Shown: positions 9,335 to 19,956 of the stretch, piece by piece | Layout of the letters: each line of letters starts with the position of its first letter | Position numbering within the stretch: the first letter of the stretch is position 1 | NCBI GenBank assembly: GCA_965368975.1 | Contig: CBDUPA010000007.1 | Coordinates: forward strand, 160,001 to 224,000 | Reading direction: 5' to 3' | Length of the DNA stretch: 64,000 bases | From: an uncultured bacterium | GTDB taxonomy: Bacteria; Acidobacteriota; Thermoanaerobaculia; Multivoradales; JAHZIX01 | Made by a program: the position numbers and the translations under genes | The notes under the pieces: generated by a model | Databases searched by the model: none | What the model was told of the DNA's origin: nothing | Seen by the model: only the letters and a program-made list of their open reading frames with translations

Positions 9335-10294
9335 TTACAGACTGGGCTTGTAGGTGGCGAGTGCGTTCAGCGCGCGCGTCACCTGACCCGGCGTGAACTC
9401 GTACATGCAGGGGTTGTCGGTGTAGTCCATGTAGTTGTGGATCGGGTCGACACCGGTGCTGGAGCAGGTGTCACGGCCGACGGGGCAACCGCTGCCCGGG
9501 GAGGCCTCGAACGGGGTGTCGGCGACGGAGTCGCCGGGTGCCGAGCAGCCACCCTGGAAGGTGTGGTAGAGGCCAACCCAGTGACCGACCTCGTGGACCA
9601 TGATGTCACCCAGGTTGTAGGGAGCGGCGGAGCCTCCCGGCAGCGTGGCGTAGCTGATCAGCACGCCGTGACGGTAGCTGTCTTCCGGGTAGGACCACGG
9701 GAAGGTGGCCCGGCCCAGCAGGCCGCCCGAGGGACCGCAGGAGTAGACGTTCAGGTGGGTGGCCGGGGAAACGGCCAGGGAGGCGCGCATCTGCTGCTCG
9801 TTGCGTGAGTTGTCACAGCGGTCGAACCAGCTGCGGTTCTCGGTACGGTCAATGCTGTCGAGCGTGAAGCTGACGCCCATGCCAGCGTAGGCCGCGTTCA
9901 TCACTGCGACCTGATCGATGACCTGCTGATCGGTGACGTTACCCACCGTGTTGCCGCGCTGCTTCTTGGTGATCACGTGCCAGGCGACCTGGACGTTGAT
10001 GGCGGCCTTGTCCGTGGCGCCGTTCTCGGCGACGTGGTTGCGGATCAGGGTGTCGACGGCTTCCTGGGTACGCGCGTCCGGGGCGGCGACGCCACACAGC
10101 TGGCCACGACGAATCTCGCCGTTCTCGTTCAGGAAGTGGATGTCCGGCTGGACGCCACCACGGTCGGTCCGTCCCTCGACGGAAGCGAGGCTGTTGGGAT
10201 GCGAGTCTTCCGGGGCGGCGATGGCGTCCGCCAGGACGCCGGTGGCGCCGCAGAACAGGAAGGTGGCGGCGAGAATCGAGGCAGCTTTCTTCAC
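9335..10294 (-). CDS. Secreted M43 zinc metalloprotease, copy 2 (most divergent)
   Basis: GTG start after AGGAG; signal peptide; QLCG switch; HEVGHWVGLYH; NYMDY. Confidence 0.92.
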   Translation of the reverse strand: MKKAASILAATFLFCGATGVLADAIAAPEDSHPNSLASVEGRTDRGGVQPDIHFLNENGEIRRGQLCGVAAPDARTQEAVDTLIRNHVAENGATDKAAINVQVAWHVITKKQRGNTVGNVTDQQVIDQVAVMNAAYAGMGVSFTLDSIDRTENRSWFDRCDNSRNEQQMRASLAVSPATHLNVYSCGPSGGLLGRATFPWSYPEDSYRHGVLISYATLPGGSAAPYNLGDIMVHEVGHWVGLYHTFQGGCSAPGDSVADTPFEASPGSGCPVGRDTCSSTGVDPIHNYMDYTDNPCMYEFTPGQVTRALNALATYKPSL

Positions 10295-10417
10295 GAGGTT
10301 TCTCCTGGTTTCCGGCCGCACTCGATTGTTCTCGGGCGGCTTCGGAGAGAGTTGGGGGGGTGCTGTTTCAGATCGGATTCAAGTGACGGTCATCGGGACC
10401 GGGGAAGTCGGGGCCTG

Positions 10418-10446
10418 AAAAAGCCGGCTCCGAGGTGGAGCCGGCT
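10418..10446 (-). terminator. Intrinsic terminator after M43 copy 3
   Basis: AGCCGGCTCC-gaggt-GGAGCCGGCT with a minus-strand T run. Confidence 0.8.
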
Positions 10447-10499
10447 GGTCCCGTCCGAACCCCTGCTATGCAGGAGTTGTGGTCGGAGTCTCTGCCGTC

Positions 10500-11414
10500 T
10501 TACAGGCTGGGACGATAGGTGGCGCACATGGTCTGCATGCGCGAAGCCTGGTCGGACGTGAAGGTGTTCATGCAGCTATCGTCGGTGTAGTCCATGAAGT
10601 TGTAGATGGGATCCAGGCCGGCGCTCGAGCAGCTGTCACGGCCGACGGGGCAGCCGTAAGCCGGCGAAGCCTCGTACGGGGTGTCAGCGACGGAGTCGCC
10701 AGGCGCCGAGCAACCACCCTGGAAGGTGTGGTAGAGGCCGAGGTAGTGGCCGACTTCATGGGTCGCGGTGTCACCCAGGTTGTAGGGAGCAGCCGAGCCG
10801 CCGGGCAGCGAGGAGTGCAGCAGGACGACGCCATGGCGGTAGTCGCTCTCGGCGAAGGACCACGGGAAGTAGGCCCAGCCCAGGATGCCGTTGCTCGGGT
10901 TGCAGCTGTAGATGTTCAGGTGAGTCGAGGGATCGACGGCCAGGGCGGACTTCATCTGGTTCTCGGTGTTGCCGTTGTAGCAGCGGTCGAACCACTTGCG
11001 GCTGTTCGTGCGCGTGGTGGTCGCCAGGTTGAACGAGAAGCCGGTGCCGGCGTAGGCGGCGTTGAGCACGGACATCTGGTTGGCGATCTGCGTGTCGGAC
11101 ACGTTGCCGATGGTGTTGCCGCGCTGGGTCTTGTAGACCACGTGCCAGGCAACCTGGATGGTGCCGGCGGCCTTCTCGGGGGCGCCGTTCTCGGCGATGT
11201 AGCTCTGCACGTAGGACTCGATGGCCGCGGCGGTGCGGGCGTCGACAGCCGGGGCGCCACAGCGGGTGCCGCGGACCAGGTCGCCATCCTGGTTCAGGAA
11301 GTGGACGTCGTGGGTGACCTCGGGGGCATCAGCGCGGCTGATGCGCTCCGCGGTGACGCTCATGGCGCCACAAAGCAGGAACAGGGCACAAAGGATCGAG
11401 ACAGACTTACGCAT
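10500..11414 (-). CDS. Secreted M43 zinc metalloprotease, copy 3
   Basis: MRKSVSILCALFLLCG signal, GTRCG, HEVGHYLGLYH, NFMDY. Confidence 0.94.
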   Translation of the reverse strand: MRKSVSILCALFLLCGAMSVTAERISRADAPEVTHDVHFLNQDGDLVRGTRCGAPAVDARTAAAIESYVQSYIAENGAPEKAAGTIQVAWHVVYKTQRGNTIGNVSDTQIANQMSVLNAAYAGTGFSFNLATTTRTNSRKWFDRCYNGNTENQMKSALAVDPSTHLNIYSCNPSNGILGWAYFPWSFAESDYRHGVVLLHSSLPGGSAAPYNLGDTATHEVGHYLGLYHTFQGGCSAPGDSVADTPYEASPAYGCPVGRDSCSSAGLDPIYNFMDYTDDSCMNTFTSDQASRMQTMCATYRPSL

Positions 11415-11589
11415 GGGTAGGGATCTCCTGCTGTCGATCCGAATACAAGTTGCTCATGACACATTCTCGAAATCCCTGCTCACGCAGGAAACGCAGGAAT
11501 GCTGTATGACCGAACTCGATCGGCTCAACAGAAATAATGGGGTTTTACGGACAAGGACCCGAACAAGGGATGTAATCTGAAGCGTTGTG

Positions 11590-11618
11590 AGTGTATGGAT
11601 GCCAGTAAGGCATGTCAA
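11590..11618 (-). promoter_or_regulatory. sigma70-type promoter for M43 copy 3
   Basis: Minus strand TTGACA (11618-11613), 17 nt, TACACT (11595-11590). Confidence 0.75.
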
Positions 11619-11704
11619 GAGTTTTTTGCGGACCCCGGCGGATTACAAGTATGGAAATGTTGCTATGTCCTCCGCGGCAGTTGCTCCCGTCAAAAAGAGA
11701 GGGT

Positions 11705-11741
11705 AAGAGAAAGAGCCGACCTCCGGAAGAAGGTCGGCTCT
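11705..11741 (-). terminator. Intrinsic terminator after M43 copy 4
   Basis: AGAGCCGACCT-8 nt-AGGTCGGCTCT, with a pyrimidine-rich tail on the minus strand. Confidence 0.75.
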
Positions 11742-11832
11742 AAGACCGCTCGATGCGGTACGTCGCAGCTGCAAAGTTCCCGGCCAGGTGCATGAGCCCT
11801 GACGGTCAGCTTCCAGGCTGGGACGAATCAGC

Positions 11833-12744
11833 TTACAGGCTGGGACGATAGGTAGCGCACATGGTCTGCATGCGCGTCGCCTGGTCGGCCGTGAAGGTGT
11901 TCATGCAGGAGTCGTCGGTGTAGTCCATGAAGTTGTAGATCGGGTCTGGGCCACCGCCGGCGCAGGTGTCACGGCCGACCGGGCAACCGTAGGCCGGGGA
12001 AGCCTCGGCCGGGGTGTCGGCGACGAAGTCACCGTTGCCGCTGCAGCCGCCCTGGAAGGTGTGGTAGAGACCCAGGTAGTGACCAACCTCGTGGGTGCCG
12101 GTGTCGCCGAGGTTGTACGGTGCGGCGGAGCCGCCGGGCAGCGAGGAGTAGAGCAGGACGACGCCGTGGCGGTAGTCGCTCTCGGCGAAGGACCAGGGGA
12201 AGTAGGCCCAACCCAGGATGCCGCCGCTCGGGTTGCAGCTGTAGATATTCAGAGTGGTCGCCGGGTTGACGTTGAGCGAGGATTTCATCTGGTTCTCGAC
12301 GTTGGTGGTGTAGCAGCGGTCGAACCAGCGGCGGTTGTTGGTGCGCGTGGTGGTCACCAGGTTGAACGAGAAGCCGGTGCCGGCGTAGGCGGCGTTGAGC
12401 ACGGCGATCTGGTTGTCGATCTGCGACTGCGGCACGTTACCGGTGGTGGTACCGCGACGAGTCTTGTAGATCACGTGGAAGGCGACATTGATGGAGCCAG
12501 CTGCCTTCTCGGGAGCACCGTTCTCGGCGATGTAGCGCTGCACGTAGGCATCAACGGCCTCGGCGGTACGCGGATCGACGGCCGGGGCGCCACAGCGGGT
12601 ACCACGGATCAGGTCGCCATGGTCGTCCAGGTAGTGGACATCGAAGGCGACGTCAGGGGCATCGCGGCTGACGCGCTCAGCGGCAACGCTCATGGCGCCG
12701 CAGAGCAGGAAGAGGGCACAGAGAATCGAGACAGACTTACGCAT
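11833..12744 (-). CDS. Secreted M43 zinc metalloprotease, copy 4
   Basis: AAGGAG RBS, same signal peptide as copy 3, HEVGHYLGLYH, NFMDY. Confidence 0.94.
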   Translation of the reverse strand: MRKSVSILCALFLLCGAMSVAAERVSRDAPDVAFDVHYLDDHGDLIRGTRCGAPAVDPRTAEAVDAYVQRYIAENGAPEKAAGSINVAFHVIYKTRRGTTTGNVPQSQIDNQIAVLNAAYAGTGFSFNLVTTTRTNNRRWFDRCYTTNVENQMKSSLNVNPATTLNIYSCNPSGGILGWAYFPWSFAESDYRHGVVLLYSSLPGGSAAPYNLGDTGTHEVGHYLGLYHTFQGGCSGNGDFVADTPAEASPAYGCPVGRDTCAGGGPDPIYNFMDYTDDSCMNTFTADQATRMQTMCATYRPSL

Positions 12745-12909
12745 GGATAGCGTCTCCTTGCATGTTCTGTACGAAGCGGGAGGTTCAACTCTGCTCGGAT
12801 ACACAAAGCCCCTCTACCAGGGAATCGTGATCAGAATGTGGGCAAAGTGAAGTCCGCCCCAGTACGGGGGATTATAGGACCCGGGAAAGTATGCTCAAAT
12901 GCGGCCATC

Positions 12910-13208: not shown

Positions 13209-14651
<1,443 letters not shown>

Positions 14652-14692
14652 ACTCTCGGAACTCGGTGCCTCGAAGCGAGGCGAGGAGGTTG

Positions 14693-17600
14693 ATGGAGTC
14701 TCACGAGCAGGAGAAGCGACCGTCGGACCAAGGGCAAGAGCAGCACGGCCAGGACGAGGCCGCGCTGCAGGTCGGCTTGGAGGATAACGCTCGGGTCGAG
14801 CGGCCTTTCCGATACCAGAACCTGATGAAGCATTTGGTGCGGGATATCCTGATGGTGGCCAGCGCCTACGACTGTTTCATCCTGGAGGAGGACGGCCGTT
14901 TCGCCGACCGCCTGCTCAACCAGTACGTGGAACTCGATCTCTCTTCGCCTCCGCACTTCCGTCACGTCGCGTCGGCACGCGAGGCCCTGGAGCTGGTGCG
15001 CAGTGAGCGCTTCGACCTGGTCCTGACGACGCCGCACTGCGCCGACATGCGCGCCGAGCGGCTGGCCGCGCAGCTGGCGGCTGAGCATTCCCATCTGCCG
15101 GTGGCGATGCTCACTTACGATCAGAGCGACGCCCTGCGCTACAGCCAAATGCCGCGCTCGGCCGGCATCGACGAGACCTTCCTGTGGACCGGCGACCCCA
15201 AGCTGTTGGTGGCCCTGGTCAAGTCGATCGAAGACCACCGCAATGTCGACCGCGACACCCGCGAGGGCATGGTGCGGGTGATCTTGTTGGTCGAGGACTC
15301 GCCGTCCTTCTACTCGTCCTATCTGCCGATCATCTACGGTGAGGTCGTCGCGCAGTTCCAGTCCTTGCTCGCCGAGCGGCTCAACGAGCGCGACCGCCGT
15401 CATCGCATGCGCGCGCGCCCGAAGATCTTGCTGGCGCGCAACTGGGAAGAGGCGGTGGATCTTTTTCATCGCTACAACGAGTTCTTGCTCGGCACGATCT
15501 GCGACATGCGGTTCCCGCGCGGTGGTCGTCTGGACCCCGACGCCGGTCGTGACTTCATCCGCTTGGTCCGCGAGAAACAGGCCGATGCGCCGGTGCTGCT
15601 GCAGTCCGGCGAGGCGGGGCACGCCAAGGTGGCGCGGGAGCTGAAGGTGCACTTCGCGGACAAGAACTCAAAGGAGTTGCTGGCCAGCCTCGGCGAGTTC
15701 ATCCGCAACAATTTCGGCTTCGGCCCCTTCCGGTTTCAACTGCCCGGCGGCAAGAAGATCGCCGTGGCGGCGGACATGGAATCGATGGTCGAGGCGCTGC
15801 GCACGGTTCCCGACGCCTCTTTGCTGTTCCACGGCCGTGGCAACCACATCTCGAACTGGCTGATGGCGCGCAGTGAATTCGGACTGGCGCAGGAAGTTCG
15901 TCCCAAGAAGGTGGGAGACTTCCCGACCACCGCCGACATGCGGACCTACCTGGTGAACAGCTTCAGTCACCACCTGGAGACACGCCAGCGCGGCGAGATC
16001 GCCGAGTTCGCGCGACATTCAGTGTCGATCACGCGTGAGTTCAGTCGCTTGGGCAGCGGGTCGATGGGCGGCAAGGGTCGTGGTATCGCTTTTCTCAGCC
16101 ATCTGCTGGTGGAGCGCGGCGTGCAGAGTCGCTATCCGGAAGTGCGCGTGCGCGTGCCGCGCACGGTGGTGATCGGTACCGACCTCTTCGATCGCTTCTG
16201 CGAGCACAAGAACCTACGCCAGCGGGCGCTCGAAGCCGAGAACGATCAGCAGGTCGTGCAACTGTTTCTGCAGCAGCCGTTGCCCAAGGAACTGGATGAA
16301 GATCTCGACGTGATCCTGGGGCAGATGGACGTGCCGATCGCGGTGCGTTCGTCGAGTCTGCACGAGGACTCCGAGTCCCTGCCGCTCGCCGGCCTTTTCA
16401 AGAGCTACATGCTGCCCAACTGCTCGCACTCGGACCGCGTGCGCAAGAGGCAGCTGAGTCGCGCCATCCGGCTGATCTATGCCACGCCCTTCTTGCACCC
16501 GGTGCGCTCCTACCTCGAGGCCAGTGCTCTGCGCGTGGAGGAAGAAAAGATGGCGGTGATCATCCAGGCCCTCGTCGGCCGCCGCCACGGCGACTACTTC
16601 TATCCCGATTTCGCCGGTGTCGCCCAGTCGTACAACTACTATCCGCTGCGTTTCATACAGCCCGACGATGGCATTGCCACCGTGGCTCTCGGCCTTGGGC
16701 AGACCATCGTCCGTGGGCGCAAGGCGCTGCGTTTCAGTCCGCGCTATCCGCGCATCCTGCCGCAGATGTCGACTCCCCAAGACGCTCTGCGCGCGTCGCA
16801 GCGCCAGTTCTTTGCCCTCGACCTGTCGGACAGCGAACTGGAGCCGCAGGTCGATGAGGACGCGCACTTGGTCACCTTCGGGCTCGAAGTTGCCGAGGAG
16901 CACGGAACACTCGAGGCGCTGGGCGCTACCTACTCGCCGGACAATGACGCCATCTACGACACCATCTACCGCGACGGGGCTCGCCTGGTGAACTTCGCTG
17001 GTGTCCTCAAGCACGGTCGCTTTCCGCTGGCACCTCTGCTCACCGACCTGCTGGCGATGGGACAGGAAGGCATGGGGATGCCAATCGAGATGGAGTTTGC
17101 GGTCACCCTGCCCGCGGACAAGAACGCCGAGACCAGCTCTCCGCCCGAGATCGCGCTGCTGCAGCTGCGGCCGCTGGTGACGCAGAGCGGCGACCGCCAG
17201 GTCGACATCGACGAGTTGCCCGAGGATCGCGTGCCGCTGATCGTCGGAACGGCGTTGGGCAACGGCGTCATCCGAGGGATTCGTGACGTTGTCTACGTCA
17301 ATCCTGACCTGCGCTTCGAGGCCGACCACAACCGCCGCTTGGCGCGCCAGATCGAGGTGCTCAACCATCGCTTGTCGCAGGCGTCGCGTCCCTACATCCT
17401 GATCGGCCCCGGCCGCTGGGGTACCGCTGACCCGTGGCTCGGCATCCCAGTGACCTGGGCCCAGGTCTCGGCCGCGCGCGTGATCGTCGAATTGGAACTG
17501 CCCGGGTCGCACATCGACGCCTCGCAGGGCACCCACTTCTTCCACAATCTGACGTCGCTACGCATTGGTTACTTCGGTGTCGATCTCGGCAACTCCGTGC

Positions 17601-17758
17601 ACTACATTGACCTGGACTGGTTGCACAGCCTCAAGAGTGACGCCGGAGCCGGCTTTCTGCACTACGTGGAACTGCCAGAGGAAGTCGAGGTGCACATCGA
17701 CGGCCGCACCGGACGTGGCGTCGTGGTGCGCGTTCCCGCCGCCGAAACCCTCACATGA
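14693..17758 (+). CDS. Receiver-like domains + PEP-synthase/PPDK-type ATP-grasp + His-swivel-like domain (no PEP-binding barrel)
   Basis: ILMVASAYDCFILEEDG, VILLVEDSPSFYS, GSMGGKGRG, AVRSSS..ED, EEEKMAVIIQ, GPGRWG..DPWLGIPV, SQGTHFFHNLTS. GGAGG RBS. Confidence 0.85.
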   Translation: MESHEQEKRPSDQGQEQHGQDEAALQVGLEDNARVERPFRYQNLMKHLVRDILMVASAYDCFILEEDGRFADRLLNQYVELDLSSPPHFRHVASAREALELVRSERFDLVLTTPHCADMRAERLAAQLAAEHSHLPVAMLTYDQSDALRYSQMPRSAGIDETFLWTGDPKLLVALVKSIEDHRNVDRDTREGMVRVILLVEDSPSFYSSYLPIIYGEVVAQFQSLLAERLNERDRRHRMRARPKILLARNWEEAVDLFHRYNEFLLGTICDMRFPRGGRLDPDAGRDFIRLVREKQADAPVLLQSGEAGHAKVARELKVHFADKNSKELLASLGEFIRNNFGFGPFRFQLPGGKKIAVAADMESMVEALRTVPDASLLFHGRGNHISNWLMARSEFGLAQEVRPKKVGDFPTTADMRTYLVNSFSHHLETRQRGEIAEFARHSVSITREFSRLGSGSMGGKGRGIAFLSHLLVERGVQSRYPEVRVRVPRTVVIGTDLFDRFCEHKNLRQRALEAENDQQVVQLFLQQPLPKELDEDLDVILGQMDVPIAVRSSSLHEDSESLPLAGLFKSYMLPNCSHSDRVRKRQLSRAIRLIYATPFLHPVRSYLEASALRVEEEKMAVIIQALVGRRHGDYFYPDFAGVAQSYNYYPLRFIQPDDGIATVALGLGQTIVRGRKALRFSPRYPRILPQMSTPQDALRASQRQFFALDLSDSELEPQVDEDAHLVTFGLEVAEEHGTLEALGATYSPDNDAIYDTIYRDGARLVNFAGVLKHGRFPLAPLLTDLLAMGQEGMGMPIEMEFAVTLPADKNAETSSPPEIALLQLRPLVTQSGDRQVDIDELPEDRVPLIVGTALGNGVIRGIRDVVYVNPDLRFEADHNRRLARQIEVLNHRLSQASRPYILIGPGRWGTADPWLGIPVTWAQVSAARVIVELELPGSHIDASQGTHFFHNLTSLRIGYFGVDLGNSVHYIDLDWLHSLKSDAGAGFLHYVELPEEVEVHIDGRTGRGVVVRVPAAETLT

Positions 17759-19956
17759 GCGACGCTCTTTCTGTTGCGGGGCGCGTCCTCGTCCTCGGTT
17801 CCGGCTCGGCAGCGCGAGCGATCCAGCGACTGCTCGCCGACGCCAGTTTCGCGCACGTGCAGGCACAACCGGAGTTGGCACCGGCCTCCCTAGCCGATGC
17901 CGATCTCGTCATCTGCGTTTTTGGTGTCGACACCCCTGCGGCGATCGCACACGGTGTCGAGCAAGCCTGCCTGGACGCCGGTACTCCCTGCCTCTTCGTC
18001 GGTCCCCTGGGGGATGAGCTCGCGGTCGGCCCGCTGGTCCGGCGTGCGGTGGCGCGGCGCGGCGGAGGTTGTTCGTCCTGCCTGGAGCGTCCGCCCTGGC
18101 CCGACTTGTTGCACGCCGCGAAGATGTCTGCGTATACGGAGCAACTCGCAGCAGCCGTAGCGCTACGCGAGGCTCACCGGCTGTTGGTTCTGGGGGCGCA
18201 AGGTGAATTGGTCGCCAAGCGTACTCTGCTCGATGCGCAAGGGCGCTCCCGTCTCGAACGCTTGGCCCACCGCCCCGGCTGTGCACGCTGCGGCACGCCC
18301 GCGACCGTCGAACTGCACCGTCTCGCCGACCTGCATCGCGCCGCCGAGCGCTTCGTACAGCCTACGCGGCGCCGCGTCACGGATCCCGCTTCCGGAAGGT
18401 CCACTGGAGAACCAAGGGTGCGCCGCGTAGGCATCCTGGGTGGTGGTAGCGCCGGCTACCTTGCCGCGTTGGTCTTGCGCCGCAAGCTGCCGAGCGTCGA
18501 GGTGACGGTAATCGCGTCCTCGGACATCCCCGTCATCGGCGTCGGCGAAGCCAGCACACCGCTGCTGCCGGCCCTATTGCATGGCACCCTCGGCCTCGAT
18601 CTCCCCGACTTCTTCCGTCGTGCCCAGCCGACGCTCAAGCTGGGTATTCACTTCGACTGGGGATCGCAGGTAGGGGCCGGCTTTCACTATCCCTTCGACC
18701 GCGGTCCGCTACTCGAATCCCTGCACTACGAAGGCCACATCAACGCGTACTGTCCGTCGTCCCTGCTCATGACCGCTGGCCGTGCTCCCTTGCTGCGCCT
18801 GGGCGATGGCTCCTTGCGCTGGCTCGGTGCGCCGTTCGCCTACCACGTCGACAATCGCCGCTTCGTCCACTACCTCCAAGAGGAGGCCGAGCGCGCCGGT
18901 GTCACGACGCTGGACCGGCTCGTCGAGCGCGCCGACGTCGGGGAACTGGCGGAGGGTGAGAAGGTCGTCGAGGCGTTGTACACCGACCGTGGCGAGTGTC
19001 TCGAAGCCGACCTATGGATCGACGCGTCCGGCTTCCGCTCGTTCCTGCTCGGCGATGTCCTCGAGGTTCCCTTCGTCGATTTCGCCCCCAGCCTGTTCAC
19101 CAACGCTGCTCTCGCTGCTCCGCTGCCGCGGCCGAGGGAGGCCGAGTTACCGCCGTACACCACGGCGGCCACCTGGGACCACGGCTGGAGCTGGCGCATC
19201 CCGCAGCTGGAAGAAGACCACGTCGGCTATGTCTTCTCGACCGCTCACGCCTCTGCCGAACAGGCCGAGCGCGAGTTCCGCCAGGCCTACCCCGGCGTTG
19301 CGGATCCCCGGCTCTTGCATTTCCGGCCCGGCCGGCGTGCCAACGCGTGGGTGGGCAATGTCGTCGGACTCGGCAACGCCTACGGCTTCGTCGAACCGCT
19401 GGAGTCGACCTCGCTGCACATGATCGCCTTGACCACCGTCTTGCTCGTCCAGCACTTTCCGCAAGGCTCGACGCAGTGCCGCGACGAGCCGACATCGCGC
19501 CGCAGCTTCAATCGCTACATCGGTGATTTCTGGGACGAACTCCGCTGGTTCCTGGCGCTGCACTTCAAGTTCAACCAGCGTCGCGACACTGGGTTCTGGC
19601 GCGCTTGCCGTGCCGAGGTCGACGTCAGTGGTGCTCAGGCGACCCTCGACCTGTTCCGCGAACGTGCACCACTCTCCTACCGCCCACACCTCGAAGACTT
19701 CGATCCTCTGTGGGGTGACTTCGGGCGTGACGTGATCCTGATGGGCCAGGACGTCAAGGGTGGATGGGGGGCACCAAGGCTGAGTCCGGAGCAGTGGGCG
19801 CGGACGATGGAACACGGCCGCGCGCTCGTCGAGGCGGCGCTGCCGCATGGGGAAGTCCTGCGACTACTGCAAGAGCAGCCGGAGGTCGGCTGGCAGCTGC
19901 AGGCCGGTGCATCGTGGCTGAGTGATGCGGCGGTCGGCGGACGGCGGGGTTGGTAG
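17755..19956 (+). CDS. ThiF/E1-like (TOMM scaffold-type) domain fused to a flavin-dependent tryptophan-type halogenase
   Basis: N-terminal domain: VLVLGSGSAA, ADLVI, ACLDAGTPCL, VGPLV, CSSC and CARC. C-terminal domain: GGGSAG, GVGEAS, TLKLGIHFDWG (catalytic Lys), AYHVDN, IDASGF, WSWRIP, FVEPLEST. ATGA overlap with the upstream gene. Confidence 0.88.
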   Translation: MSDALSVAGRVLVLGSGSAARAIQRLLADASFAHVQAQPELAPASLADADLVICVFGVDTPAAIAHGVEQACLDAGTPCLFVGPLGDELAVGPLVRRAVARRGGGCSSCLERPPWPDLLHAAKMSAYTEQLAAAVALREAHRLLVLGAQGELVAKRTLLDAQGRSRLERLAHRPGCARCGTPATVELHRLADLHRAAERFVQPTRRRVTDPASGRSTGEPRVRRVGILGGGSAGYLAALVLRRKLPSVEVTVIASSDIPVIGVGEASTPLLPALLHGTLGLDLPDFFRRAQPTLKLGIHFDWGSQVGAGFHYPFDRGPLLESLHYEGHINAYCPSSLLMTAGRAPLLRLGDGSLRWLGAPFAYHVDNRRFVHYLQEEAERAGVTTLDRLVERADVGELAEGEKVVEALYTDRGECLEADLWIDASGFRSFLLGDVLEVPFVDFAPSLFTNAALAAPLPRPREAELPPYTTAATWDHGWSWRIPQLEEDHVGYVFSTAHASAEQAEREFRQAYPGVADPRLLHFRPGRRANAWVGNVVGLGNAYGFVEPLESTSLHMIALTTVLLVQHFPQGSTQCRDEPTSRRSFNRYIGDFWDELRWFLALHFKFNQRRDTGFWRACRAEVDVSGAQATLDLFRERAPLSYRPHLEDFDPLWGDFGRDVILMGQDVKGGWGAPRLSPEQWARTMEHGRALVEAALPHGEVLRLLQEQPEVGWQLQAGASWLSDAAVGGRRGW

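Follow-up and report, generated by a model that had tools for sequence, protein, structure and literature searches.

We begin with the question that this locus raises: what does a flavin-dependent halogenase act on when it is fused to an E1-like domain, and what could that domain contribute when no precursor peptide is visible nearby? The gene (17755..19956, + strand) lies in the window, by which we mean the whole stretch of 64,000 nucleotides analysed (C7:160001-224000). It is a single open reading frame of 733 amino acids, whose product we call P0001, and it opens at the first start codon past an in-frame stop. The product consists of the E1-like domain, a linker and the halogenase. The frame is continuous, with no stop codon between the two domains.

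The initial annotation had placed a complete flavin-dependent halogenase at the C-terminal end of the fusion, and the profile searches bear this out. Residues 224-643 match the Pfam family Trp_halogenase (PF04820) with E 8e-104 and 348.4 bits against a cut-off of 21, and the motifs and Lys295 lie where an alignment of 22 sequences (A1) is invariant. On the evidence of PF04820 and of the structure 5uao_A, the tryptophan-type halogenase domain extends over residues 223-733 (18421..19953, +). It contains the FAD-binding GxGxxG motif as GGGSAG (residues 229-234; 18439..18456, +) and the halogenase motif WxWxIP as WSWRIP (residues 478-483; 19186..19203, +), both in invariant columns of A1. Lys295 (18637..18639, +), in the string PTLKLGI, aligns with the KLGI of 5uao and is invariant in A1, as is E547, and the glutamates of FVEPLES are present. 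The roles of the catalytic Lys and the conserved Glu are known from PrnA and RebH, and Lys295 is presumably the catalytic Lys expected of flavin-dependent halogenases. The closest solved structure is 5uao_A (375 bits, E 8e-111; P0001 residues 199-724 against chain positions 6-532), an entry titled 'Tryptophane-5-halogenase' that we take to be MibH; the next best is RebH, at about 205 bits and E 6e-60.

We turn to the N-terminal domain (residues about 8-201; 17776..18357, +), which profiles and predicted fold assign to the ThiF/MoeB/MccB fold, of the non-catalytic type seen in domain 2 of TruD and LynD. The features on which an E1-like assignment had been proposed are all found: a Rossmann-like start (RVLVLGSGS, residues 10-18), the VGP motif, present twice (residues 82-84 and 91-93), and two CxxC pairs. 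The first pair, CSSC (residues 106-109; 18070..18081, +), aligns with CWHC of TruD and the second, CARC (residues 176-179; 18280..18291, +), with CPTC of TruD, and the pairs of MccB align as well. Two such pairs form a structural zinc site in E1-like proteins. Across 40 homologous domains G92 and P93 are invariant, and conservation is at least 90% at C106, C109, C176 and C179. The HMM of the E1-like domain built in this work gives E 3e-38 on this region, and against the PDB the N-domain profile (A2) finds TruD (8e-12, over its residues 127-325, that is, domain 2), MccB (2e-8), LynD (1.5e-6), MusD (5e-6), MoeB (5e-3) and ThiF (2e-2). The NCBIfam model TIGR03882, titled 'TOMM precursor leader peptide-binding protein', scores 27.2 bits on P0001, under its curated cut-off of 36.9; among 22 family members it finds 18 at E no higher than 0.01, the best at 4.5e-9.

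Does the predicted structure agree? The suggestion would have fallen if the domain were not E1-like by structure, so we ran that test. The N-domain model has pLDDT 79.7, with 89 of its 223 residues at pLDDT 90 or above, and Foldseek matches it to MccB, LynD, ThiF, MoeB, TruD, UBA5, PaaA and McbB at E 1e-9 to 1e-6 (TMq 0.49-0.59), with probability 1.00 for the first six; the assignment thus stands. The profile alignment shows the nucleotide-binding insert to be missing: about 45 residues that MccB has there are absent from the domain, and for this reason we file the domain as non-catalytic, like domain 2 of TruD and LynD. A homodimer model of the domain scored 0.55 against 0.00 for the best control. 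Of 30 proteins whose structures are pairs of one chain, 20 attained this mark, as did 1 of 23 with single-chain structures; these counts are only a rough guide here, because our own alignment was used and because a pass may stem from E1-like homodimers whose structures the model has already seen. At least 63% of contacts are shared between the runs, and the partner has pLDDT of at least 75. Between the domains lies a low-confidence linker (residues 202-222; 18358..18420, +), with pLDDT below 50 at residues 182-212 and 214-219.

The next question is whether this arrangement is peculiar to P0001. Typical relatives have about 830-900 residues and carry, in order, a PqqD-like peptide-recognition domain (RRE), the E1-like domain and the halogenase. 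This full layout is found in 71 of 110 full-length relatives, RRE plus halogenase in 11 and halogenase only in 18. The E1-like domain occurs in 81 of the 110 and at 50 of 80 genome loci, so the view that the architecture is rare has to be given up. A second concern, that the fusion might be an artefact absent from homologues, was also put to the test: proteins with an E1-like domain and a halogenase are numerous, and P0004 (747 residues, 82% identity to P0001) has the identical layout, likewise without the RRE.

It is the RRE that sets P0001 apart from its typical relatives. P0001 starts at the Rossmann strand; no RRE is found in the window, nor one of the family type in the genome at E<1e-3. 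In the relatives, the RRE region matches PqqD in 8 of 29 cases and PaaA-like_N in 5 of 29, with PaaA and PbtF as matches in the PDB. P0001 and P0004 fall in a clade of 13 rows (SH-aLRT 95) that also holds eight proteins with RRE and halogenase and two with RRE, E1-like domain and halogenase, and from these sequences the loss of the RRE in P0001 and P0004 appears to be a derived state. Since the nearest relatives mostly keep the RRE (8 of 13 rows), peptide substrates are suggested as ancestral. The state with E1-like domain and halogenase alone needs nine changes on the tree, and the proteins that begin directly at the Rossmann strand include at least three more complete ones, each from its own 50% cluster (P0098, P0172 and P0189). 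In 21 of 83 sources the family adjoins a Nif11-type precursor whose last residue is Trp (MCCW, MCPW or DTTW). The same precursor-bearing type of cluster also holds a gene for a halogenase only (L053) and one for an E1-like domain and halogenase with no detectable RRE (L060). As far as our searches reach, KrmI is the only characterised member of the family.

We now consider the surroundings of the gene. At the junction ...ACATGAGC... the halogenase gene starts with an ATG at 17755 that runs into the TGA (17756-17758) ending the 1030-residue gene 5' of it, so that the ATGA (17755..17758, +), read directly from the sequence, couples the halogenase gene to a gene for a response-regulator receiver joined to a PEP-synthase-like nucleotide-binding domain, PPDK_N (14666..17758, +). 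The latter follows gdhA, for glutamate dehydrogenase (13242..14651, +), the first gene of a conserved pair; both assignments come from family matches and from the relatives' loci. Of the 61 genomes of the order, 25 have an orthologue of P0002, the partner of gdhA in the pair; gdhA adjoins the orthologue in 9 of 11 loci fetched, and a halogenase does so in none of the 11. The receiver-PPDK_N gene is conserved alongside gdhA and is no part of the halogenase system, and the halogenase gene is a lineage-specific addition to the end of the pair. The coupling to the gdhA-dikinase genes is real, as first reported, but says little of function because the pair stands without the halogenase in the relatives' loci.

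Are the usual partners found elsewhere? Whole-genome family searches place no YcaO, Lant_dehydr_N, Flavin_Reduct or PqqD gene within the window. A scan of its short frames gives no credible Trp-terminated small ORF: 35 of 961 end in W, all of them Arg/Pro-rich off-frame products. The earlier statement that the window holds no YcaO, Lan enzyme, flavin reductase or precursor is upheld by these searches, and a scan of 18 of the window's 43 ORFs turned up no NRPS. In the whole genome, the usual neighbours of the family (a LanB-N-only protein, two MBL-fold proteins, a cupin, TfuA and a 122-residue precursor) give no tblastn match at 1e-8, and the precursor HMM reaches a best E of 0.019, with matching ORFs that lack a terminal Trp. 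The profile of the E1-like domain matches only the P0001 ORF and an E1-like plus YcaO protein on contig C27 (E 2.8e-5), and the sole Flavin_Reduct gene found by the profile search lies on contig C8. The genome also has three stand-alone PqqD-like proteins, several small ORFs with GG leaders and four tandem PEARL-like genes on contig C9, any of which could be a partner in trans. One PqqD-like gene weakly resembles the family RRE; it adjoins a radical SAM/SPASM gene and so probably serves another system. When compared at 1e-8, the PEARL-like genes do not resemble the LanB-N-only proteins encoded beside the fused family. The best reading of the context is that P0001 is an orphan halogenase, its usual cluster partners not being found in the genome.

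Combining these lines, we give about even chances to an explanation in which P0001 is a leader-independent orphan halogenase of the MibH/KrmI branch, derived from the RRE-bearing family and carrying an E1-like dimerising scaffold. By its sequence, the C-terminal part of 510 residues would be a complete and apparently active halogenase of that branch; it would halogenate an indole ring with O2, with Cl- or Br-, and with reduced FAD supplied by a separate reductase. A flexible linker of about 40 residues would join it to the N-terminal 200 residues, a putatively non-catalytic E1-like domain that, on the structure model, may serve mainly as a homodimerising structural scaffold. P0001 would then be a derived, shortened member of a large family whose RRE-bearing members probably often belong to RiPP clusters, where they act on Nif11-type precursors with a final Trp. 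In its lineage the leader-binding RRE would have been lost and the gene appended after the gdhA-dikinase pair, where it is presumably co-translated. By analogy with KrmI, Amm3 and MibH, such an enzyme may act independently of a leader, its substrate being a free molecule derived from Trp or indole, or else a peptide that has already matured.

A rather unlikely alternative, close to what had been proposed initially, is that a peptide or protein Trp encoded elsewhere is halogenated, and that the E1-like domain recruits this substrate, either unaided or through a stand-alone RRE protein that docks to it and carries the leader. The absence of an RRE is compatible with peptide substrates, if SrpI (leader-dependent without an RRE) and the cluster positions of L053 and L060 are taken as guides. 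The Trp-ending precursors beside the family, which resemble SrpE, speak for recruitment, as do the RRE-keeping rows of the clade, the title of TIGR03882, a closest solved structure that is a peptide halogenase, MibH, and the genome's stand-alone PqqD-like genes, GG-leader ORFs, PEARL-like array and E1-like plus YcaO locus. The proposal is nevertheless weakened: the leader-binding element in such modules is the RRE, which is missing from P0001 and from the window. The genome yields neither a family-type precursor nor the usual neighbours, the one PqqD-like gene with a weak resemblance to the family RRE probably serves another system, and TIGR03882 stays under its cut-off.

The E1-like domain might also be an evolutionary leftover, functionless and drifting after the RRE was lost, with a halogenase that suffices by itself or a gene on its way out. 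Between P0001 and P0004 the N-domain is 68% identical over 225 residues and the halogenase domain 88%, so the former evolves faster; N-terminal modules have been lost repeatedly in the family, and the cognate cluster is not found in the genome. Against drift, purifying selection is indicated by the same 68% identity together with the retention of the four Cys and the invariant GP, and we judge from this that the domain remains under constraint. The domain also folds confidently in the model, the frame is intact and translationally coupled, and the other proteins that begin at the Rossmann strand are complete. We regard the leftover explanation as improbable.

More of a long shot is that the RRE-less E1-like domain is a docking platform for trans-encoded machinery (the PEARL-like enzymes of C9 or a stand-alone PqqD-like protein), with Trp halogenated while bound to a scaffold peptide; if true, the RiPP or pearlin pathway concerned would be split and assembled in trans, and no earlier halogenase would have been shown to act on a scaffold-bound amino acid. 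Very improbable, in our judgement, is a bifunctional enzyme whose E1-like domain is an active adenylating enzyme of the ThiF/MccB type, activating a carboxylate (for example of Trp or of a peptide C-terminus) before or after halogenation. MccB, ThiF, MoeB and PaaA are among its fold or profile matches, and OxzB, described as having a ThiF-like domain that cyclises N-acyl amino acids, offers a precedent. The deletion over the nucleotide-binding insert of MccB speaks against such activity, as does the fact that the best profile match is domain 2 of TruD, which does not adenylate. In P0001 the glycine-rich loop is GSGSAA, whereas adenylating E1-type enzymes have a GxGGxG-type consensus. That an assembly or gene-calling artefact fused two separate genes is of negligible probability, for although public runs sharing words with the stretch yielded nothing beyond identical fragments about 200 bases long, none bridging the domain junction, the frame is continuous and the same fusion recurs in P0004, at the genome loci and in the full-length relatives counted above.

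Peptide-acting halogenases are sought as biocatalysts, and those characterised are, in the published passages, a handful (MibH, SrpI, MppI and ChlH). P0001 belongs to a large family that fuses a leader-recognition front end (RRE and E1-like domain) to a MibH-like halogenase, and as a natural RRE-deletion variant it offers, together with its RRE-only cousins, a comparison for the contribution of the E1-like domain. Alone it is an orphan tailoring enzyme of moderate importance; the family context outside the window is the more promising lead.

How does P0001 compare with the known systems? MibH, the Trp-5 chlorinase of the lanthipeptide NAI-107, is the best solved relative of its halogenase domain (5uao). 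The 541-residue chain aligns to the halogenase part alone and has no E1-like domain. MibH is encoded within its lanthipeptide cluster, whereas P0001 has no Lan enzyme or precursor nearby. MibH is described as acting only once the leader is removed. SrpI, in the published description, brominates the C-terminal Trp of the proteusin SrpE (core LCCCW) and depends on the leader, though it has no RRE. The likeness lies with the RRE-bearing relatives of P0001, which adjoin precursors ending MCCW or MCPW together with YcaO; SrpI differs in having, as described, neither RRE nor E1-like domain, and a SrpE-like precursor was not found in the genome of P0001. Amm3, the ammosamide halogenase, is reported to cluster with MibH and to accept only a free Trp-derived diaminoquinone and no peptide intermediate. 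The amm cluster also has PEARL-like genes, as does the genome of P0001 with its four in tandem, but Amm3 is clustered with its pathway, whereas those four lie on another contig than P0001; the passages on Amm3 mention no E1-like fusion.

For the front end, the comparison is with the cyanobactin heterocyclases TruD, LynD and PatD (RRE, E1-like domain and YcaO). The N-domain of P0001 and their domain 2 are homologues whose CxxC pairs align, and the full-length family mirrors their RRE and E1-like front end with a halogenase in place of the YcaO domain; in P0001, domain 1 (the RRE) is gone as well. In LynD the RRE is described as forming the leader-binding sheet.

The closest parallel to the fusion itself is KrmI, from the keramamide pathway of a Theonella swinhoei symbiont, known here by description as a ThiF-fused halogenase acting on hydroxy-Trp and grouped with MibH and BrvH, apart from the classical Trp 5/6/7-halogenases. 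The ThiF-like N-terminal fusion ascribed to it at the outset agrees with the review's description, so that KrmI, like P0001, would carry an E1/ThiF-like domain and a halogenase in one polypeptide. Its reported strings ATTPSL and YPFGA resemble the family consensus ATTPLx and YPFxxG, and P0001 has ASTPLL and YPFDR, similar and not identical. P0163 (E1-like domain and halogenase, no RRE) is the only protein in our sets with both KrmI strings, a link of two short motifs only, and it falls in another clade than P0001. KrmI differs in serving an NRPS pathway, of which the scanned window ORFs hold none. P0001 is a further example of the KrmI-like kind of fusion, which is already known.

We start from the reading frame itself, which runs from 17755 to 19956 on the forward strand and encodes a protein of 733 aa (P0001). 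It opens with the earliest start codon that follows an in-frame stop, an ATG sharing bases with the TGA of the gene before it (...ACATGAGC...). The protein contains a complete Trp_halogenase domain (residues 224-643; Pfam, E 8e-104) in which the motifs GGGSAG (residues 229-234) and WSWRIP (residues 478-483), Lys295 and the glutamates of FVEPLES are all present, and these form invariant columns in an alignment of 22 family members. The first 220 residues hold every feature listed in the initial annotation: a Rossmann-like start (RVLVLGSGS, residues 10-18), VGP (residues 91-93) and two CxxC pairs (CSSC, residues 106-109, and CARC, residues 176-179). Two public DNA sequencing runs contain about 5% of the words sampled, and RNA runs are absent from the listing. 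The reads of the two runs match only as identical pieces some 200 bases long, apart from gdhA sequences of other organisms, and bridge neither the gene junction nor the domain junction.

The next question is what kind of domain the N-terminal region represents. The NCBIfam model TIGR03882, "TOMM precursor leader peptide-binding protein", scores 27.2 bits against P0001, under its threshold of 36.9, and it matches 18 of the 22 family members (best E 4.5e-9), while the SagC model matches two of the 22. When 40 homologous E1-like domains are taken from the window and the fetched loci and aligned, G92 and P93 are invariant and the four cysteines are at least 90% conserved. Compared with PDB sequences, the profile of these domains finds TruD (residues 127-325, E 8e-12), MccB (2e-8), LynD (1.5e-6) and MusD (5e-6) and, more weakly, MoeB (5e-3) and ThiF (2e-2). 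Both CxxC pairs align with the Cys pairs of TruD and MccB, and the domain lacks the nucleotide-binding insert, being about 45 residues shorter than MccB at that point. The AlphaFold2 model of residues 1-223 (pLDDT 79.7) has as its top Foldseek matches MccB, LynD, ThiF, MoeB, TruD, MusD, UBA5, PaaA and McbB (E 1e-9 to 1e-6, TMq 0.49-0.59, probability 1.00); the possibility that the domain is not E1-like by structure is therefore not borne out by the predicted fold. Because the sequence profiles and the predicted fold agree, we assign the domain as E1-like, of the non-adenylating kind found in domain 2 of the cyanobactin heterocyclases. In a six-frame search of the genome (97,386 frames) with a profile of those 19 rows of the 22-sequence alignment that have the E1-like domain, the only matches are the fusion ORF and, at E 2.8e-5, the one E1-like+YcaO protein of this genome, on contig C27.

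The E1-like domain may serve as a dimerising scaffold. Its two-copy model reaches 0.55, against 0.00 for the best control. Of 30 proteins whose solved structure is a pair of one chain, 20 attain this mark; of 23 with a single-chain structure, one does. Agreement between runs is 63% of contacts or more, with a partner pLDDT of 75 or higher, and the modelled symmetric interface is formed by residues 22-31 and 125-146. Because solved E1-like enzymes are homodimers, the score may stem from likeness to them instead of adding evidence. In the full-length model both domains are confident and the linker that joins them has a pLDDT below 50, and for this reason we draw nothing from it on the packing of the two domains.

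We turn to the family of fusion proteins. P0001 has 75 homologues of nearly its length, and many of these have 800-900 aa (query coverage 90-97%) with about 100 extra N-terminal residues that carry a DGxRT..EI-type motif. A profile of 29 such regions matches PaaA (E 0.0068) and PbtF (0.034) in the PDB and, more weakly, PqqD (0.08-0.14) and LynD residues 19-81 (0.8); Pfam finds PqqD in eight of the 29 and PaaA-like_N in five. These matches give moderate support for reading the region as a winged helix of the RRE type, the PqqD-like domain that recognizes leader peptides. Among the best 80 of 393 confirmed genome loci, 44 have RRE, E1-like and halogenase domains together (one of them frameshift-split), six have E1-like and halogenase domains (one cut by a contig end), three have RRE and halogenase, and 27 have the halogenase only. 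The corresponding numbers are 71, 10, 11 and 18 for 110 proteins with a near-complete halogenase domain, from which fragments without a halogenase match longer than 420 profile positions had been dropped. Searching 1.84 billion representatives with the E1-like profile gives 5456 matches at E <=1e-3; of the best 150, six were in the set previously and the remaining 144 were assigned an architecture. These 144 comprise 37 with all three domains, 12 with E1-like and halogenase domains, 21 with a YcaO domain, a count that is approximate because the classes rest on our own HMMs and on phmmer with the single YcaO domain of this genome, and 74 with neither halogenase nor YcaO. Many of the 74 have about 330-390 aa and are possibly stand-alone proteins resembling the TOMM C protein. 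Counted across loci, proteins and representatives, the architecture described at first as rare is therefore common. One RRE+E1-like+halogenase gene, in a Holophagales MAG (L022:9295-11767), is split over two frames within the E1-like domain, by either a frameshift or a sequencing error.

The closest solved relative of the halogenase domain is 5uao_A, "Tryptophane-5-halogenase" (375 bits, aligned end to end), which we take to be MibH; RebH gives about 205 bits and PrnA about 174. In a tree of 110 halogenase domains (IQ-TREE quick, LG+G4, SH-aLRT), P0001 pairs with P0004, its 82% identical relative. The halogenase domains of this pair are about 88-90% identical; at 68% identity, against 88% for the halogenase, the N-terminal domain evolves faster, yet is clearly conserved. 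Around this pair the tree shows a clade of 13 rows (support 95), which also includes eight RRE+halogenase and two RRE+E1-like+halogenase proteins, together with P0077, a long-branch row whose placement is unsafe. The E1-like+halogenase label needs nine changes on the tree, and the RRE has therefore been lost repeatedly. Three further proteins (P0098, P0172 and P0189) are complete at 734-745 aa and begin directly with the Rossmann strand, with halogenase domains only 43-46% identical to that of P0001; the record name of P0098 is only "tryptophan 7-halogenase".

What do the fused genes have beside them? Clustering the neighbours over the 80 loci gives a LanB-N-terminal-only, PEARL-like protein of about 771 aa in 26 loci (including 24 of the 44 full fusions), two MBL-fold proteins in 27 loci each, a cupin/JmjC protein in 14, TfuA in 13, YcaO in 12, and in 18 loci a protein of 122 aa without a Pfam match. 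This last protein is a Nif11-like precursor with a leader end ...ELSEDELESVAGG and a core that has MCCW, MCPW or DTTW as its last residues. Its HMM matches 21 of 83 sources at E <=0.01, with a Trp-ended frame in 22 of the 23 matched rows; one of these precursors, which have the leader end ...VAGG, is encoded on the reverse strand at L020:16814-17185, and 20 further loci bear one (e.g. L040, L044, L053, L056, L060, L061, L077, L024 and L084). These loci combine RRE+E1-like+halogenase genes with the LanB-N-terminal-only protein, the two MBL-fold proteins, YcaO/TfuA and the cupin, and they are clusters of the srp-like type in which the halogenase bears its own RRE. In two of the 21 the halogenase is without a detectable RRE, L053 having the halogenase only and L060 the E1-like and halogenase domains; therefore the absence of an RRE does not by itself exclude peptide substrates. 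In locus L020 a further halogenase gene, stand-alone and encoding about 500 aa (7908-9434), lies directly upstream of the fused gene and overlaps it; 15 other Nostoc/Aliinostoc loci have such a gene in this position.

The surroundings of the window gene are different in kind, and it stands there as an orphan. Upstream lie gdhA (13242-14651) and the gene of a 1030-aa receiver and PPDK_N protein (P0002; 14666-17758, forward strand), in which Pfam shows no phosphohistidine or PEP-utilising C-terminal domain. P0002 has orthologues in 25 of 61 genomes from the order and in all five from the family; gdhA adjoins the orthologue in nine of 11 fetched loci and a halogenase in none of the 11. The gdhA/P0002 pair is ancestral, and the halogenase gene beside it is a lineage-specific insertion. 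Near halogenases elsewhere, neither gene has a match in the 80 loci. GC3 is 0.78 in the fusion gene, 0.84 in gdhA and P0002 and 0.77-0.81 in the downstream genes, a difference that hints at horizontal transfer and is suggestive only. Genomes of the same family have related halogenases at unrelated places among housekeeping-type genes (for example a 644-aa frame, 55% identical, in G003 and an 872-aa protein, 44%, in G005). Downstream follow a secreted Cys-rich protein, an alpha/beta hydrolase, an ABC exporter, an amidohydrolase, a Ser/Thr kinase and a sigma-54 activator, and no flanking biosynthetic cluster appears among the 18 of 43 window ORFs of at least 100 aa that were scanned. The Cys-rich protein (20344-21516, forward strand, 390 aa) has a signal peptide, no Pfam match and a single weak match, to the plant thaumatin-like 2ahn (E 0.001, residues 292-338). 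Upstream of gdhA, three paralogous M43 (pappalysin-type) metallopeptidase genes (322, 328 and 323 aa) occupy 8120-12804 on the reverse strand. The closest clade (the window with L010, L011, L012, L014 and L097) has no common neighbour or small ORF, except an ABC1 kinase in L011 and L014, and no credible Trp-terminated small ORF was found near 13 loci.

Could the partners be encoded elsewhere in the genome? The usual neighbours of the family have no tblastn match there at 1e-8, weak YcaO similarity excepted. The initial annotation proposed to look for a YcaO and for Trp-containing precursors. A YcaO is present, and the best scores of the family's precursor HMM (E 0.019) fall on small GG-leader ORFs that are not Trp-ended. 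ORFs with ...E(L/A)xE(V/A)AGG leader ends lie at C13:106754-106918 (reverse), C13:108999-109148 (forward), C5:259000-259143 (reverse) and C16:153-449 (forward). They are possible RiPP precursors, and the core of one starts with Trp. The only YcaO is a 780-aa E1-like+YcaO fusion on contig C27 (L090:6950-15536), next to an S8 protease, a ferric-reductase/Rieske fusion and a gene of the MbnB/TglH/ChrH family (DUF692), and this looks like a separate RiPP-like locus. Besides this fusion, possible partners in the genome are one flavin reductase, on C8, and three stand-alone PqqD-like genes, on C22, C27 and C8. One of these, of 96 aa, lies on C8 between a 342-aa protein without Pfam match and a divergent radical SAM/SPASM gene (L124:6446-8902), a candidate RiPP locus. 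Further candidates are the LanB-type genes on C12 and C13 and an array on C9. On C9 (about 118.5-128.8 kb; L091:6537-16817, reverse strand) four LanB-N-terminal-only, PEARL-like genes (811, 861, 905 and 867 aa) stand in tandem, between an ADP-forming acyl-CoA synthetase-like gene and the genes of GAPDH and PGK, with no tailoring genes or precursor identified in the array; the four-gene array recalls the ammosamide cluster.

The observation of an E1-like/halogenase fusion is thus confirmed, and the interpretation given with it is partly supported. The window gene encodes a fusion of the KrmI-like kind. It belongs to a large family, of which it is a naturally occurring form that has lost the RRE, and no partner is identifiable in its genome. 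By analogy, P0001 may halogenate a free Trp- or indole-derived molecule, or a mature peptide, independently of a leader. There are precedents: the ThiF-fused KrmI acts on a hydroxy-Trp (review), Amm3, of the MibH clade, accepts only a free diaminoquinone, and MibH is active only after leader removal. P0163, an E1-like+halogenase protein with no room for an RRE, has both signature strings printed for KrmI, which by sequence is a lead and not an identification.

Of greater note is a finding beyond the window: the family with RRE, E1-like and halogenase domains and Trp-terminated Nif11 precursors. We did not find it described in the literature searched, supplements apart, where trees or tables may show it. 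Nor did we find a paper that treats a halogenase, an E1-like domain and a leader peptide together; for flavin-dependent halogenases and ThiF the mention of KrmI is the only relevant case, and the available parts of the literature combining RRE-Finder and halogenases do not describe an RRE-fused halogenase. In the srp system, the C-terminal Trp of the SrpE core LCCCW is brominated by SrpI after YcaO action, and SrpI is without an embedded RRE (PMC10858898). The MCCW, MCPW and DTTW cores encoded beside the fused halogenases closely parallel this Trp-ended core of SrpE.
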